Assembly: GCA_024275415.1 (NCBI GenBank)
Contig: JAJRZD010000034.1
Span: 30,001 to 62,000 of the forward strand
Direction of reading: 5' to 3'
DNA length: 32,000 bases
Source: an archaeon
GTDB lineage: Archaea; Asgardarchaeota; Thorarchaeia; Thorarchaeales; Thorarchaeaceae
Position numbers and translations under genes: made by a program. The notes under the pieces were generated by a model. The model was not told the DNA's origin and did not search any database. It saw nothing but the letters and a program-made list of their open reading frames with translations. Positions 3,964 to 31,998 of this stretch are shown one piece after another. Numbering within the stretch: the stretch's first letter is position 1; each line of letters opens with the position of its first letter.

Positions 3964-4129
3964 GGGCCAGTGGCTAAGCCAGGTATAGCGACAGGACGTT
4001 CGGAACCCCTCCGGCGTGTTGAAGCTCTTAACTTGTAGAGTCTGGGATTCCCCCTGGCTCGAGGAATGGTCGAGGGTTCTTCGCTATTGATTTCCAGTAG
4101 CAAGCCCAAAAATCCCTCCTGGCCCGCCA
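3964..4129 (+). tRNA. tRNA-Lys(CTT) with three introns (30/31: 3995-4023; 43/44: 4037-4066; 56/57: 4080-4109); CCA encoded
   Basis: Exons 3964-3994, 4024-4036, 4067-4079, 4110-4129 join to GGGCCAGTGGCTAAGCCAGGTATAGCGACAGGCTCTTAACTTGTTGGTCGAGGGTTCAAATCCCTCCTGGCCCGCCA. Cloverleaf: acceptor GGGCCAG/CTGGCCC, D-stem GCTA/TAGC, anticodon stem ACAGG/CTTGT, loop CT-CTT-AA, T-stem GAGGG/CCCTC, loop TTCAAAT. Each intron folds into a BHB-like junction. Confidence 0.93.
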
Positions 4130-20884: not shown

Positions 20885-22369
20885 ATGAGCGGTCGTGACG
20901 AGAAACCCGACACAAAACAGGTCATTTTCAACATCAGCAAAGAACATAATTTTCCCGAGTGGTACAGTGAGATCTGCAAGGTTGCTGAACTGGCTGACAT
21001 CCGTTATAATGTCAAGGGGTTCACACCGTTCTTGCCTTGGAGCATGATGTCCATGAACCTTATGTTCGACTATCTCGAAGCAAACCTTCAAGAGAAGGGG
21101 CATCTGCCCATGTTATTTCCAACTGTGATTCCTGAAAGCAATCTGACCAAGGAAGCAGAACATGTAGAAGGCTTCACTCCTCAAGTCTTCTGGATTAGAG
21201 AGATTGGCGATGGACAGAAATTGGAAGAAGCACTCGCATTGAGACCTACTAGTGAAACTGCGATATATCCCATGTACTCACTATGGGTTCGAAGCTGGCG
21301 AGATTTGCCAATGAAAAGATATCAGCGTTGCACGGTGTTCCGATCAGAAGTCAAGAGTACACGACCATTCCTCCGAGGAAGGGAGTTCCTATGGATTGAA
21401 AGCCACAATGTCTTTGCTACTCATCAAGATGCATTGAATCAGGTAATGGAAGACCTCGAAATCACAAAGGAAGTGGTCACAGGCGATTTTGGTATCCCTG
21501 TCATGGTGTTCAAACGAACTCAATGGGACAAATTCCCAGGAGGTCTCAATACCTATGCAGCTGACACCCTTATGCCTGATGGAAAAGTGATTCAATTGCC
21601 ATCCACTCATGACTTAGGTGACAATTTTGCAAGAGCTTTTGATGTTAAGTATCTCAACGAAGAGAACGAGATGGTGTATGCTTGGCAGACATGCTATGGG
21701 CCTGCCATATCACGAATCTACGGTGCGATGATTTCAATCCACGGGGATGACAAGGGTCTCAGGATTCCCTATAAGATTGCACCCTATCAGGTCGTCATCG
21801 TGCCAATCTTCAAGGACAAGACCAAGGATGAAGTTATGAAGTATTGCAGGAACATCGAGAAGACCCTCCGGAAAGCTGGCATCCGTGTACACCTTGATGA
21901 CACTGATCAGACACCAGGATGGAAATTCAACTTCTGGGAAATGAAGGGGGTTCCCATCAGGATTGAAGCTGGTCCTCGAGACCTCAAGGAGAAAAAAGTT
22001 GTAGCACTACGCAGGGACACGATGGAACGAGAGAGTTTCGACCTTACATCTCTCAAGAAGAGGATTCCCAAGCTTGGCGGGGCGATTGATGCCAACCTTC
22101 GTTCGATTGCCGAATCCAAGTTTGAGGGCCTTATTGTTGATGCCGATTCAATAGGCGCCATCGAGGATGCTCTCAGCAACGGGAAAATCGCGCGGGTGCC
22201 ATTCTGTACCACCGAGATGGAAGGTCAGGGATGCGGCGACGAAATCAAAGATCGGACGGGTGGAGAGGTTCGCGGTACTAGGATTGACATTGACGACCCT
22301 CTCGTTGGAGTTTGTGTTGTATGTGGCAAGGCAGCAAGTGAAATGGTCTATGTTGCACGCTCCTACTAG
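20885..22369 (+). CDS. proS: Proline--tRNA ligase, archaeal/eukaryotic type
   Basis: KEAEHVEGF.P, LRPTSET, SWRDLP, FR.E...TRPFLR.REFLW.E, H.LG.NF, C-terminal Zn domain ending ARSY. Confidence 0.97.
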   Translation: MSGRDEKPDTKQVIFNISKEHNFPEWYSEICKVAELADIRYNVKGFTPFLPWSMMSMNLMFDYLEANLQEKGHLPMLFPTVIPESNLTKEAEHVEGFTPQVFWIREIGDGQKLEEALALRPTSETAIYPMYSLWVRSWRDLPMKRYQRCTVFRSEVKSTRPFLRGREFLWIESHNVFATHQDALNQVMEDLEITKEVVTGDFGIPVMVFKRTQWDKFPGGLNTYAADTLMPDGKVIQLPSTHDLGDNFARAFDVKYLNEENEMVYAWQTCYGPAISRIYGAMISIHGDDKGLRIPYKIAPYQVVIVPIFKDKTKDEVMKYCRNIEKTLRKAGIRVHLDDTDQTPGWKFNFWEMKGVPIRIEAGPRDLKEKKVVALRRDTMERESFDLTSLKKRIPKLGGAIDANLRSIAESKFEGLIVDADSIGAIEDALSNGKIARVPFCTTEMEGQGCGDEIKDRTGGEVRGTRIDIDDPLVGVCVVCGKAASEMVYVARSY

Positions 22370-23640: not shown

Positions 23641-25830
23641 TTGAACATAGAACAAATCTCTGATATTCCTGGTGTTGGTGAGAAAGTCCGAGGAGCTTTG
23701 GTGGATCACTTTGGGTCAGAGTCTGTGGCATTGAAGGTCATCTTAGACTCACGAGTGGATCTTGTTGCAGCCGTCCCGGGGATTGGTGCACGGCAAGCTG
23801 TTAACATCGTGAAAGCCGCATATGAATCACGTTTCGGCGTGAGTTCCAATACCATTCTCAGGAGCCCTGACATCAGAAAAATATTCGAGCAAGTGCTTGA
23901 CATCATCAGGAGCTACGCCAATACAGTCTATGCCAAAGACAAGCTTTTCCTGTACTTTCCGCTACCCCCTGATAGATTAGAGGAGATTGAGAATCGACAG
24001 GCTTACTTTGCTGATGCATCAGCAATGGCCAGATCATTGTCGCCCGAGCAGCGAGAAATCATCTGCAGAAACCTTTCCCAGATCAGAGGGTTGTTCAGGA
24101 GAATAAAACCAAAGCGCATCGAAGGGAGAGTCGTACTCACCAATGATGACAAGACTTTCGACAAGCTGATTGCTGAAGGAGTTGAGAAGTGGTGTCCAGC
24201 ATATCTCCTTTCTGAAGGTGAGAGCGCAGCTGATTATGCCCAAGGGTACGATCTTGTCTTCTACATCTCGCCCTTCGGGTTCTACGACAGCTCTGTGGAC
24301 ATGCTTGACAATGTAGAGGCACTTGGGAAGGATTGGAGCATTGCAGATGTTCTCCCAGAATACACTGTCGGTTTCTATTCCCGCAACTATAGGGTCATTG
24401 ATGCTGCTTGCAAACTGGCAGAGGAATTCAAAGAGATTCCTACGAACGAGTCTGTGCGGAAGTTCATCCAAGACATAGACTTCGAGGATTTGATGAAAGT
24501 AGGAGAAATCCTGAGCAACCTGAATGAAGATGGGGACATCGCGACCGGCGTTGATCCCGAACTCGATAGATACAGGAAAGCGGTCAAGGCATATCCTACC
24601 GCCATTGCGGAAATGGAATCATGGCTAAATGAGCAAATTACCACTCGTATTTCAAAGAGCCAAATAACTCTCGGCGGTCAACAAATCATCAGCATCCTGC
24701 AGTCCGCAGATATGGAAGGCGCAGATGCAGGTGCCATGAGAAATATGCTTCCTGCTGAGATCATTGAAACATTTGCCAATACGATTCAAGAGGCTGAAGA
24801 GAGGCTGGTCAACGAGCTGGGACTCACACCACGAGAAGCAGATTGGGTGACAGGAATAATCAGTGAGGAAATCGCGTTGCCTGTCAAGCTAGTAATGACA
24901 CAAGTCAATGACCTTGAGGACAAGCTGAGACGGAAATATGCCGATAAGCAATTCCGACTTATTAAGAAGTACGCCAGCGATTTGGAAAAACTCCGCGAAT
25001 CTGTCACCAAGGCTGTCCAAACACTCTTGGAATTTGATTTATTCCTTGCTGTAGGGCTTTTCTCTGCGGACTATGATTTGAAACGCCCGACCCTAACCCT
25101 AGAATATTCTGGAATCGGGGTCAGGGGTGCTAGGAACATATTCTTGGTTGAGAGTATGCTCAAGGGACGCCATGGCACAGTGCAACCGATTGAGTATGTA
25201 ATAGGAAACACTCCACTACGCCTTCCCGGGACGAATGGTGAGAACTGTGCAATACTTTCGGGCGCAAATAGTGGAGGGAAGACAACGACAATCCAGACCC
25301 TAGCTCAAATAGCGACGCTCGCCCAGACTGGATTTCCCGTCCCCGCCGCCGAAACGATACTAAGCCCCTTTGAGGAGATCTTTTTCTTCTACAAAAGCAG
25401 AGGAATGGTGAGTGCGGGTGCTTTTGAAACGACACTCAAGCAGTTTGCTGACATTGTGGTATCAGAAAAGGCCAAATTGGCGCTCTTCGATGAGGTCGAA
25501 GCCATTACAGAGCCTGGCAGTGCGGCCAATGTCATTGCCGGACTGATAGAGATCCTTCAACAGGATCCGAAAAGCTGCACTGTCATATGCAGTCATCTTG
25601 CGAAGGAGATCGAAGCAGCTACTAGCGTGCCCATCAGGATAGACGGGATTGAGGCGCAAGGGTTGGACGAGAATCTTGAACTGATAGTGGACAGGACTCC
25701 CCGTTTCGGTGTTCTGGCAAGGAGTACTCCAGAACTGATTGTCGAAAGGCTATCGAAGCTCGCAAAGGGGAAGAAAAAGGCAGTCTATGACAAGATTCTT
25801 GAGAATCTTAGCAAGGAGCGTATTGAATAG
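23641..25830 (+). CDS. Archaeal MutS5-like ATPase (N-terminal helix-hairpin-helix, C-terminal MutS ATPase domain)
   Basis: IPGVGEK and VPGIG HhH motifs; Walker A GANSGGKTT; SAGAFE; Walker B LFDEVEAITEPG; SHL. No mismatch-recognition domain or Smr domain evident. Confidence 0.88.
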   Translation: MNIEQISDIPGVGEKVRGALVDHFGSESVALKVILDSRVDLVAAVPGIGARQAVNIVKAAYESRFGVSSNTILRSPDIRKIFEQVLDIIRSYANTVYAKDKLFLYFPLPPDRLEEIENRQAYFADASAMARSLSPEQREIICRNLSQIRGLFRRIKPKRIEGRVVLTNDDKTFDKLIAEGVEKWCPAYLLSEGESAADYAQGYDLVFYISPFGFYDSSVDMLDNVEALGKDWSIADVLPEYTVGFYSRNYRVIDAACKLAEEFKEIPTNESVRKFIQDIDFEDLMKVGEILSNLNEDGDIATGVDPELDRYRKAVKAYPTAIAEMESWLNEQITTRISKSQITLGGQQIISILQSADMEGADAGAMRNMLPAEIIETFANTIQEAEERLVNELGLTPREADWVTGIISEEIALPVKLVMTQVNDLEDKLRRKYADKQFRLIKKYASDLEKLRESVTKAVQTLLEFDLFLAVGLFSADYDLKRPTLTLEYSGIGVRGARNIFLVESMLKGRHGTVQPIEYVIGNTPLRLPGTNGENCAILSGANSGGKTTTIQTLAQIATLAQTGFPVPAAETILSPFEEIFFFYKSRGMVSAGAFETTLKQFADIVVSEKAKLALFDEVEAITEPGSAANVIAGLIEILQQDPKSCTVICSHLAKEIEAATSVPIRIDGIEAQGLDENLELIVDRTPRFGVLARSTPELIVERLSKLAKGKKKAVYDKILENLSKERIE

Positions 25831-27609: not shown

Positions 27610-28554
27610 CTATTTCCTGAGCTTTAACCAGATAGCGACGATTGCCACTACTGCCACTCCACCAACAACCATCAGTGTGGTTGTCGAATCCAATGGCAGG
27701 GTATCTGCTGATGCGATTCCCAACACAGGGTCGTAGATCAACGTGTCATTCCCGAAGTACTCAAATGCTAAATATACTGACTCTCCTCTTTCACCGCCCA
27801 TGCCTTCACCGTAGCTGGCTCTGACTTGAAGGGAGTTCTGAGACTCCAGTGCGAGGGCTTCCTCCTCATAATGCATGTATGCATTGTCGAAGTTGAACTT
27901 AGTTCCTACCTTGTGGAACCCTCTAGGATTCCTCTCGGGCATCCCTTCGCCATGACCGCTCTCAGTGATGGTGAATTGTAGGACTAGGATTGAACTATCA
28001 TATGTCCAGTTCCAGCCATCGATAATGACATCGAACTTCACTTCTCCCGGGTTGTCCATGTATAGATGGACTCGGATTTGAACCATGACATCAAATGCCA
28101 CCATGTCAGGTATCTGCCAATTTTCGCCCATGGGCCGTGGGTCGAACTCTGTGGTCGTGGTGAAGTTGAAGTGGACAGCTGTAATGTTATCGCCTTCACT
28201 CTCGGTTTCAAAACCGCTGAACTCCCAGCCCGATGTTGGGAGCATGAAACGAGCTCCTATGACCTCGTCCACCCCGCGAGTGAAAACGTTGTCCCCGTCC
28301 GTGTCATTGGCCTCGAAAAGACTCACAAAGAGCATGTGATAGTCTATGGATTCGTTATTCGGATCCCACCAGAAAAAGTGTGGCACCTGATTTGCACCGA
28401 CCACCTTGACGCTCAATTCGTCAGTGCTTAGAGTGACGACGCCTGCAGAATGGTTGTACTGCAATCCGTTGCCCTGTGCGGAAGCTGCCGGAATGCTTAT
28501 GGCCAACATGCCGACCGCCAGCAGCGAGAGTATAATTTTCATGTGATTATTCAT
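27610..28554 (-). CDS. Predicted cell-surface glycoprotein (signal peptide, beta-rich domain, C-terminal TM anchor)
   Basis: N-terminal signal peptide, seven N-x-S/T sequons, DTDGD acidic loop, C-terminal TM followed by KLRK. Confidence 0.8.
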   Translation of the reverse strand: MNNHMKIILSLLAVGMLAISIPAASAQGNGLQYNHSAGVVTLSTDELSVKVVGANQVPHFFWWDPNNESIDYHMLFVSLFEANDTDGDNVFTRGVDEVIGARFMLPTSGWEFSGFETESEGDNITAVHFNFTTTTEFDPRPMGENWQIPDMVAFDVMVQIRVHLYMDNPGEVKFDVIIDGWNWTYDSSILVLQFTITESGHGEGMPERNPRGFHKVGTKFNFDNAYMHYEEEALALESQNSLQVRASYGEGMGGERGESVYLAFEYFGNDTLIYDPVLGIASADTLPLDSTTTLMVVGGVAVVAIVAIWLKLRK

Positions 28555-29909: not shown

Positions 29910-30090
29910 TCGACCTTATGTCTTTGTACTGTCCGGTTCCATTTAACCACCTGCCACGAGATGTCCAACTCTCACGCAGCTCGTACCAACCCTCCAGATA
30001 TCATTTGGGCGAGTAGTAACTCCCTCGCACCTCCCAAATCCGACACCCCACAGCAATGTTAATATTGCATTCATTATTGACTCCTCCTTA

Positions 30091-30252
30091 GCCGCCGTGG
30101 CTCAGTAGGTAGATGATACCTATTTTGGTATCAACCGAAAGCGACAGCCTGTTACCTTTCGGTCAACCAGACTGGGAGCCAGACAGTTGTTGGTCGGAGG
30201 TTCGAGAGACCGTCAAATAAAACATAGCGGTCAGAAAACCCTCCCGGCGGCG
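30091..30252 (+). tRNA. tRNA-Asn(GTT) with three introns (22/23: 30113-30139; 37/38: 30155-30184; 59/60: 30207-30238); CCA not encoded
   Basis: Exons join to the 73-nt GCCGCCGTGGCTCAGTAGGTAGAGCGACAGCCTGTTAAGTTGTTGGTCGGAGGTTCGAGCCCTCCCGGCGGCG. Acceptor GCCGCCG/CGGCGGC, D-stem GCTC/GAGC, anticodon stem ACAGC/GTTGT, loop CT-GTT-AA, T-stem GGAGG/CCTCC. Each junction is BHB-like. Confidence 0.93.
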
Positions 30253-30369
30253 CTATTCCACTTTGTTTCCATAGTGTGTATCTAGTTTGGGGCCAAACTG
30301 GTGGCACTTCTATCTACTGCGCAACCACTCTTGGACAGCCCGTCGCTTCCTGATATCATTGGGAGGGCA

Positions 30370-31998
30370 TTATATGGCCCAACGAATCGTGTCCTCAAGC
30401 GAGTCAGTAGTGGCAATCCAGCAGACTGAAACCCTGTCAGTTCTTGGATAGTAAGATACACGTCTAGGAAAGAAGGAAACAGCAAAGCCCAATCCTTCGG
30501 CAAGGCGGCACTCGTCTCTGATGAGGTTATTGATTGACATATTCACGACGTTAAGGAGGTTTGTGACAGTTTCGGCAATGGCAGGGTCGTTATCTTCCTG
30601 CAGTTCCTTAAGCTTATTGATAGACAGGGTGGACTTTGGGATCAAGCCTCTGATGGTCTTCCCCTCTTTCTTTATGAGTTCAATCTCCTCTTGTCCTATC
30701 ATCGACTCCATATCATAGTGCTCCTTCTCCATATTGACATGGATGGCATGGCTACGAGACCACATGAATCTCCCACGCCCGAAGCTTCCATCTTCGGGAA
30801 TAAGCTCTTCAAGATAGGCGCGTTTGGACTCGTCTGACCAATCAACATACGTGGGAGGAAGTCCTGGGTTGTTGATGGTTTTGTTACCGGGAGTCATCCC
30901 GTCATCCAAAAGAACCAATCCAATCTGGCAATGGATATGAATGTCATATTTGCCTTTGCGGTATTTAGGTTCGAGCAAAATAGTCCCAAACTCACTAATG
31001 GTATCCTGTACTCTCAGAATCCTTCCCATGTGTGCCTCGTTATACGCAATTCGGCCAGTCGGCCATAGATGACAATCACTGATGACCACCGCCGTAAGCC
31101 TTGCCTTTAATATTTCAAGTTTTTTTCCTTCAGGAAACCGTGGATTCTTAATTCCTGCTCGTCCGCTTATTCCTGCTATCTTGACTACTAGTCCTTCGAG
31201 ATTCGACAATCTTCTTCGGGAGCCATCAAGATACATCCTGATGATTTTCCCTTCGAGGCGAGTGCTGTAAACGTCGAGAGGTCGTTTCCTTGCGGGTTGT
31301 CCCTCGTCGTTATCCATGAACTGTCTGACAATCTCGTTGATGCGTGGCAAGTCCCTGCGTAGAGTCCCATTGAGTCCTAGTGTCTTCCGCAGTTGGTCGA
31401 TTATCCTGACGACGTCGCCTCGATGTCTGAAATAGAAGAACTGATCCTCATAAGGTCGCACGAGTTCATCAGGTCTGTGCATGGGCACCCATGCGTACAT
31501 CGTGTTCTCGACCAGCGCCAAACGAGCTCGCACATGGACAAGTCCGAGAGCAGATGAAAGGGAATCCTCTATCCGTTGTTTGTTTGCGCGAAGGTATTGC
31601 TCGATCTGCCTGATCCTACCGGTTTCAAGTTCAGGATACAAGATTGCACGATAAAACCTCTCATTGACAGTAGGACTGTTTCTTATCATCTCTGCAATCG
31701 CAGAAACTAGATTCATCTGAGTGAGTTCTTTCGCGTTTTTGATGGTTTCAAGGGCATCGTGGACGAGATGTTTCTCTATCGTGTGGGCGGTTAGCGACTC
31801 AAAGAGGTCTAGACTTGTGGTGTCATACATTCTTTCGAGGGTGGCTCTGTCTATCTCTGGGTTGCTCTTCTGCCACCCACTGATGATACATTCTTCCTCA
31901 TGCTTTCTGAGGTCTTTGATCTGAGCTGGTTCGATGGCATTCCACGAATTGGTCACAAATCCCTTGCTGACGCCGTATTTTACCGCAATCTCATCGCG
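30370..31998 (-). CDS. HTH + LAGLIDADG-like (homing endonuclease fold) protein; 5' end lies beyond the window
   Basis: Frame is open to the edge (RDEIAVKYGVSKGFVTNSW, HTH-like). Degenerate LAGLIDADG-like helices ARLTAVVISDCHL and KRAYLEELIPEDGSF lie about 95 aa apart; no intein splice motifs seen. Confidence 0.6.
   Translation of the reverse strand, partial: RDEIAVKYGVSKGFVTNSWNAIEPAQIKDLRKHEEECIISGWQKSNPEIDRATLERMYDTTSLDLFESLTAHTIEKHLVHDALETIKNAKELTQMNLVSAIAEMIRNSPTVNERFYRAILYPELETGRIRQIEQYLRANKQRIEDSLSSALGLVHVRARLALVENTMYAWVPMHRPDELVRPYEDQFFYFRHRGDVVRIIDQLRKTLGLNGTLRRDLPRINEIVRQFMDNDEGQPARKRPLDVYSTRLEGKIIRMYLDGSRRRLSNLEGLVVKIAGISGRAGIKNPRFPEGKKLEILKARLTAVVISDCHLWPTGRIAYNEAHMGRILRVQDTISEFGTILLEPKYRKGKYDIHIHCQIGLVLLDDGMTPGNKTINNPGLPPTYVDWSDESKRAYLEELIPEDGSFGRGRFMWSRSHAIHVNMEKEHYDMESMIGQEEIELIKKEGKTIRGLIPKSTLSINKLKELQEDNDPAIAETVTNLLNVVNMSINNLIRDECRLAEGLGFAVSFFPRRVSYYPRTDRVSVCWIATTDSLEDTIRWAI

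Follow-up and report, generated by a model that had tools for sequence, protein, structure and literature searches.

A tRNA-Asn(GTT) gene with four exons and three short introns in a Thorarchaeota (Asgard) genome

Positions 30091-30252 (+) of the window, the 32,000-nt stretch of DNA that was analysed, are a genuine tRNA-Asn(GTT) gene of a Thorarchaeota (Asgard) archaeon, composed of four exons and three short introns. Excision of 30113-30139 (27 nt), 30155-30184 (30 nt) and 30207-30238 (32 nt), the segments between tRNA positions 22/23, 37/38 and 59/60, leaves exons of 22, 15, 22 and 14 nt that together make a 73-nt tRNA-Asn(GTT). This partition, which had been proposed in an initial annotation of the sequence, is exact by ARAGORN, by pair-aware dynamic programming and by motif-free alignment. 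The gene is very probably the single functional Asn gene of the archaeon, with three BHB-type introns that would be removed by protein enzymes. Its parts are as follows:

30091..30112, + strand: exon 1, tRNA positions 1-22 (acceptor 5' strand, D-stem 5' strand and D-loop)
30113..30139, + strand: intron 1, 27 nt, site 22/23; 7-bp inner hairpin, with an ACCG segment that pairs with D-loop nucleotides 18-20
30140..30154, + strand: exon 2, tRNA positions 23-37 (D-stem 3' strand, anticodon stem 5' strand and anticodon GTT)
30155..30184, + strand: intron 2, 30 nt, canonical site 37/38; 9-bp inner hairpin, with a CCAG segment that pairs with nucleotides 32-34
30185..30206, + strand: exon 3, tRNA positions 38-59 (anticodon stem 3' strand, variable loop, T-stem 5' strand and most of the T-loop)
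30207..30238, + strand: intron 3, 32 nt, site 59/60 in the T-loop; 6-bp inner hairpin, with an AGAA segment that pairs with T54-C56
30239..30252, + strand: exon 4, tRNA positions 60-73 (T-stem 3' strand, acceptor 3' strand and discriminator G73)

The universal nucleotides of tRNA are U8, A14, G18G19, U33, T54-psi55-C56, A58 and C61. ARAGORN identifies the joined exons as tRNA-Asn(gtt), and the 73-mer is the textbook molecule that had been foreseen: the pair-aware spliced-profile dynamic programme forms 21 of 21 stem pairs (acceptor 7, D 4, anticodon 5 and T 5 bp), and the conserved nucleotides include U8, A14, G18G19, U33, a TTCGA T-loop and G73. With stems of 7/4/5/5 bp, the anticodon GUU and the universal nucleotides in place, the product has the defining features of tRNA-Asn(GUU); the CCA end is not encoded at the gene. 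Two other kinds of interrupted gene were considered and excluded. A split or permuted tRNA gene does not fit four exons that are colinear on one strand within 162 nt. Group I and group II introns are built on a ribozyme core that is hundreds of nucleotides long and recognised by Rfam models; the segments here are only 27-32 nt long, and no Rfam family matches in the window.

The lineage of the host is given by the ProRS encoded in the window (20885-22369), which is 71-85% identical to the ProRS of ~60 MAGs. Most of these are named Candidatus Thorarchaeota and some are labelled Promethearchaeota, Hermodarchaeota or uncultured archaeon; the genome is therefore placed in that Asgard group, a lineage different from the Thermoproteales, as had been supposed. 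In many of these relatives a tRNA-Asn gene lies a few kb downstream of ProRS, and further orthologues were collected by a pattern search in 40 related genomes. Each orthologue was aligned to the compact 73-mer with cheap long gaps and without use of the splicing motif, and the intron boundaries obtained in this way are identical to the proposed ones. The 21 distinct full-length orthologous genes show 13 different intron combinations, drawn from sites 22/23, 28/29, 37/38, 43/44, 50/51 and 59/60, with from one intron (37/38 only) up to four per gene. Exons are nearly identical throughout, and each of the three window introns is precisely missing from some orthologue: intron 1 (22/23) from 14 of the 21, intron 2 (37/38) from genes of the L064/L067/L089 type and intron 3 (59/60) from genes of the L055/L080/L076/L038 type. 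Three combinations occur in the genus to which the window belongs: 22/23+37/38+59/60 in this genome, and 28/29+37/38+59/60 and 37/38+50/51 in relatives. No intron-less tRNA-Asn occurs among the 21 distinct genes sampled.

Splicing motifs were read in a fixed geometry. Bulge 1 is made of the last two exon bases and the first intron base, the central helix (H) pairs the four exon bases before bulge 1 with intron bases n-5 to n-2, and bulge 2 is made of the last two intron bases and the first base of the next exon. Lengths of the central, inner (h') and outer (h) helices are:

Intron at 22/23: H 3, h' 7, h 2; mismatch A17.G
Intron at 37/38: H 3, h' 9, h 7; mismatch U35.C
Intron at 59/60: H 3, h' 6, h 5; mismatch G57.A

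The initial annotation had given each intron a stem, paired 3-nt bulges and a central tetramer helix. The stems (inner helices of 7, 9 and 6 bp) and the 3-nt bulges exist, but the central tetramer is in fact three pairs and a mismatch. None of the three introns thus reaches the strict hBHBh' form, although bulges and cut positions fit; all three have the relaxed BHB form, in which bulges flank a short central helix, one or both of the helices h and h' are present beside it and excision restores the cloverleaf. Most other introns of the genome have four central pairs. Intron 2 resembles the canonical archaeal 37/38 intron in its site, in the use of the anticodon stem as outer helix and in both 3-nt bulges, and differs from the canonical strict hBHBh' motif in its central helix of three pairs plus U35.C; introns 1 and 3, unlike the canonical intron, lie at non-canonical sites.

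Comparison with orthologues separates the three mismatches. The U35.C position is unpaired in 17 of 17 distinct orthologous 37/38 introns (U.C in 16 and U.U in 1), so this mismatch is evidently tolerated. The G57.A mismatch is private to this genome, the position being paired in 10 of 11 orthologous 59/60 introns. A17.G is likewise private, as the sole unpaired case among seven distinct 22/23 introns (C-G in four), and for this reason the 22/23 intron could be cut less efficiently. The inner-helix positions of the introns covary, with many compensatory pair types among orthologues: at its third pair the 37/38 hairpin has CG, GC, TA or TG, with pairing in 17 of 17, and the hairpin stem of intron 1 covaries among the orthologues that carry the 22/23 intron. 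The introns of this gene are thus insertions relative to compact homologues that show compensatory helix changes, and the covarying helices imply selection on the fold. The three motifs can coexist with the acceptor, anticodon and T stems in a single fold of -53.3 kcal/mol; without constraints the MFE structure is a different one, at -65.2 kcal/mol, ~12 kcal/mol more stable than the three-BHB structure.

The outer helix of the 22/23 motif, only 2 bp long, uses G24 and C25 of the D-stem and so competes with that stem; the D-arm would form only after removal of the intron and would have to refold for the 22/23 motif to form. It is conceivable, though very unlikely, that the gene is functional and that its 22/23 segment is handled unlike a standard BHB intron, which would make it a kinetically limited or regulated source of tRNA-Asn: the segment might be cut inefficiently, might be cut only after the other two introns leave and the RNA refolds, or might be subject to a relaxed HBh'-type recognition. 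The borrowed 2-bp outer helix speaks for special handling, as do the A17.G mismatch, which is missing from relatives with a 22/23 intron, and the report that D-arm insertions often lack canonical motifs (bioRxiv 10.64898/2026.10.13.758758). Standard splicing is nevertheless favoured by the motif itself, which keeps both 3-nt bulges, a 7-bp inner helix and three central pairs; by the D-arm introns at 22/23 and 23/24 in other tRNAs of this genome, which have four-pair central helices; and by the broad-specificity (alpha-beta)2 EndAs, which are reported to cut relaxed motifs (PMC5829648).

For all three introns we favour, with high confidence, the usual archaeal route of EndA cleavage and RtcB ligation, acting here on relaxed BHB motifs. 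The genome encodes two paralogues of EndA (tRNA-intron endonuclease), one alpha-like (190 aa, on C69) and one beta-like (213 aa, on C117). The 190-aa protein matches the Aeropyrum pernix catalytic chain 3P1Z_B over its full length (1e-43); the match extends across the part that aligns with the loop region of the crenarchaeal enzyme, and the context of Y...H...K is kept. The 213-aa protein is divergent, its alignment lacks the His-containing motif, and it would fit a structural beta subunit. Homology to the A. pernix EndA, and the agreement of the two paralogues with the L1-loop (alpha-beta)2 EndA that has been described in Asgard archaea (PMC5829648), suggest an (alpha-beta)2 heterotetramer of the corresponding specificity. 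An RtcB ligase is also encoded (9e-175), so that the host has both RtcB and an EndA that appears suited to non-canonical sites. Transcription, cleavage at the relaxed motifs and the order of splicing are inferred. The gene would be transcribed from a conserved BRE/TATA box ~30 nt upstream, and each intron would fold into its hairpin (h') in the precursor. Immediately before the 5' splice site, 3-4 nucleotides of the exon would pair with the 3' flank of the intron (H), and this would put both splice sites in bulges on opposite strands. A heterotetramer-type (alpha-beta)2 EndA would cleave after the second bulge nucleotide, RtcB would ligate the four exons, and RNase P and the CCA-adding enzyme would mature the ends to give the 73-nt tRNA.

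Two elements flank the gene:

30050..30066, + strand: putative archaeal promoter, a BRE-like ACAGCAAnn followed by a TATA-like TTAATATT, 25-41 nt upstream of the mature 5' end
30261..30268, + strand: T-rich tract CTTTGTTT just 3' of the gene, read from the sequence

The upstream box, ACAGCAAnnTTAATATT, stands at the same distance in 17 of 17 orthologous loci amid diverged surrounding sequence and is probably a BRE/TATA promoter; the T-rich tract is a possible archaeal oligo-T terminator. No second tRNA-Asn gene or Asn exon fragment is present in the assembly, which is 92.9% complete in 127 contigs. This degree of completeness leaves room for a decaying or silenced tRNA-Asn pseudogene from which the segments are not removed, with a working Asn tRNA in the ~7% of the genome that is unassembled, and such a pseudogene would also agree with a mismatch in all three central helices and with a locus that neither ARAGORN nor Rfam recognises. 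It is very unlikely, since the exons pair perfectly (21/21) and hardly differ from those of 20 other orthologues, all of them interrupted, the promoter box is conserved, the intron helices covary in a way that implies selection on the fold, and no stray Asn exon lies elsewhere in the assembly.

Standard searches do not see the functional gene proposed here. ARAGORN finds no tRNA genes in the unspliced window, Rfam gives no matches in the whole window at gathering thresholds, and none of the 36 matches to RF00005 over the whole genome (E<=1) falls at the tRNA-Asn locus. BHB-like candidates, scanned on both strands of the 3.5-Mb assembly under loose criteria, number ~470,000 per strand, and SPLITS-style removal of all such candidates was dropped because of this number. 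The search that was used is a spliced tRNA-profile dynamic programme in which jumps are allowed only at BHB-like candidates, followed by a pair-aware refinement that also admits relaxed candidates and motif-free jumps; refinement with motif-free jumps yields the same three introns in tRNA-Asn. The locus reaches a profile score of 37.1 bits with 21/21 stem pairs. Background alignments of the spliced-profile programme centre on 9 stem pairs, and in a decoy made of the reversed, non-complemented genome (7.1 Mb) the best score is 26.5 and the maximum 17/21 pairs, so chance is excluded for tRNA-Asn. That the cloverleaf is an artefact of a free choice of deleted segments in random sequence, for which the very large number of BHB-like candidates could be cited, is refuted by this decoy and by orthologues that fix the boundaries independently, and has next to no probability. 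ARAGORN, Rfam and Infernal are blind to the interrupted gene, and a tRNA-Asn 'missing' from Thorarchaeota annotations is therefore an artefact; the gene is a concrete case of the essential tRNA genes of Asgard genomes that escape standard tRNA finders.

The genome-wide, BHB-aware count of introns that the initial annotation had proposed was made by intron-aware search and refinement, with some parsing by eye (several class II tRNAs). ARAGORN -i was left out of this census, as it forced every insertion into the anticodon loop and mislabelled many genes. The census holds 46 tRNA genes and 49 introns (1.07 per gene):

0 introns: 12 genes
1 intron: 22 genes
2 introns: 9 genes
3 introns: 3 genes

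Thus 34 of 46 genes (74%) are interrupted. Eighteen introns lie at 37/38, and the other 31 (63%) are non-canonical, at the D-loop, 10/11, 12/13, 22/23, 23/24, 30/31, 43/44, 44/45, 51/52, 53/54, 56/57, 58/59, 59/60 and the variable arm; the majority of the 49 are 27-33 nt long, and intron-to-intron similarity within the genome nowhere exceeds a shuffled null. The genes with three introns are Asn GTT, Lys CTT (window 3964-4126) and Trp CCA (C82:8872-9094). The tRNA-Lys(CTT) gene (+) is, as had been noted, a second triple-intron tRNA of the window, with introns at 30/31 (29 nt), 43/44 (30 nt) and 56/57 (30 nt); it has 21/21 stem pairs after splicing and is followed by an encoded CCA, and in two of its motifs the outer helix is absent or the inner helix (h') contains a mismatch. 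The proliferation of introns that had been extrapolated from these two genes is real, at about the level of the Thermoproteales, but two of two is a poor guide to the genome, where three genes of 46 have three introns; that both tRNA genes of the window are among them is a local coincidence. A genome of mostly intron-less tRNAs with an intact tRNA-Asn elsewhere, the case named at the outset as contrary, is not what is found: most tRNAs are interrupted, and the Asn gene has no second copy in the assembly.

The novelty implied by the initial annotation does not stand, because heavy interruption of Asgard tRNA genes is already published (PMC5829648; PMC11291895; bioRxiv 10.64898/2026.10.13.758758); the tRNA-Asn gene adds a good example and not a new kind. 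Kaneta et al. (2018) predicted the tRNAs of four Asgard genomes, including Thorarchaeota SMTZ1-83, mapped multi-intron genes and took incomplete tRNA sets to point to undetected disrupted genes (PMC5829648). In Atabeyarchaeia and Freyarchaeia, 92-95% of tRNA genes are interrupted and more than half contain multiple introns (Valentin-Alvarado et al., 2024; PMC11291895). A census of 90 Asgard genomes (bioRxiv, October 2026, 10.64898/2026.10.13.758758) gives 2.2 intervening sequences per gene, with 97% of genes interrupted, in extreme focal families and 0.91 per gene in other Asgard families; it also reports that D-arm introns escape annotators and that most genomes have two EndA paralogues, and it concludes that introns were gained repeatedly, without a general route of arrival being identified. 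By its ProRS relatives, its three introns and the 49 introns in 46 genes around it, the tRNA-Asn gene belongs with these heavily interrupted genes. Like the multi-intron tRNAs of Atabeyarchaeia, Freyarchaeia and Jordiarchaeia, it has several short introns (~20-30 nt) in D-arm, anticodon loop and T-arm; in both cases genes or introns are missed by standard annotators, and intron content varies between close relatives. This genome (1.07 per gene, 74%) fits the other Asgard families of the census (0.91) and not the extreme ones (2.2, 97%), and its intron density, the rapid turnover and the lack of within-genome copying agree with the published Asgard picture. The known mechanism of splicing is unchanged by the finding; what the gene offers is a well-controlled example of an Asgard interrupted tRNA, with boundaries that come from orthologues and not from the motif.

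The Thermoproteales, as they are quoted in PMC11291895 and bioRxiv 10.64898/2026.10.13.758758, have ~70% of their tRNA genes interrupted, with 1.54 introns per gene in P. calidifontis; multi-intron tRNAs are cited for Pyrobaculum, Thermofilum and Caldivirga (Marck and Grosjean, 2003; Sugahara, 2008; Fujishima, 2010). So far as these quotations extend, the likeness to this genome lies in introns of BHB or relaxed-BHB type that occupy many sites (22/23 and 59/60 among them), in up to three introns per gene, in the ~70% of genes interrupted and in an (alpha-beta)2 EndA of broad specificity that has the L1/Crenarchaea-specific loop. The Thermoproteales belong to the TACK superphylum, whereas the present host is an Asgard archaeon, and related introns recur between their genes, whereas no intron similarity exceeds the shuffled null here.

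Introns at 43/44 (L053/L046) and at 50/51 (L056/L038/L110) of orthologous tRNA-Asn genes are up to 80% identical (median 0.63, against a shuffled-null maximum of 0.57), and 28/29 introns are also weakly similar (0.60). The 3' segments that pair with the exon differ between the two sites (GACT vs GGCC in the examples read), and the pair looks like one intron that was relocated and re-fitted to a new site. If this likeness reflects movement between sites 7 nt apart with a re-fitted exon-pairing segment, it would give a concrete handle on how BHB introns spread, which is the central open problem according to the census (bioRxiv 10.64898/2026.10.13.758758). The suggestion that introns have been gained, lost and relocated very fast at the Thorarchaeota tRNA-Asn locus, which would make it a natural series of such events, is a tentative one, more doubtful than not; the orthologue series could be used to test ideas about intron turnover. 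In L079, the second-closest relative by ProRS (83%), the stretch from 17864 onward holds the conserved promoter box and 19 nt from the 5' end of tRNA-Asn; the remaining 1.3 kb of the fetched locus is unrelated sequence, and the gene is either reduced to a 5' stump or split by a very long insertion. The closest relatives (L031-L034) have no tRNA-Asn within the fetched ProRS flank.

Several other tRNA loci of the genome stand out in the census. The tRNA-Trp(CCA) gene at G000:C82:8872-9094 (+) is 223 nt long, with introns at 12/13 (~32 nt) and 59/60 (31 nt); its middle insertion, 85-90 nt around the anticodon loop and variable loop, was not parsed into clean introns by the solver and may be two adjacent or nested introns. 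A tRNA with anticodon CAT at G000:C43:83648-83788 (-) carries two introns (D-loop, ~32 nt; anticodon loop, ~29 nt) and appears initiator-like from its A1:T72 and GGG/CCC anticodon stem; it is missed by Rfam and called Leu by ARAGORN. At G000:C69:8832-8944 (-) ARAGORN reports a 91-nt tRNA-Sec(tca) candidate, a type that the class I/II profile is not suited to judge. In the window, the tRNA-Asn region is flanked by ORFs at 30370-31956 (-), 528 aa, and 27610-28554 (-), 314 aa, neither with a Pfam match, and just downstream of ProRS a 729-aa ORF at 23641-25830 (+), with an N-terminal HhH and MutS domain V, encodes an archaeal MutS-like ATPase.
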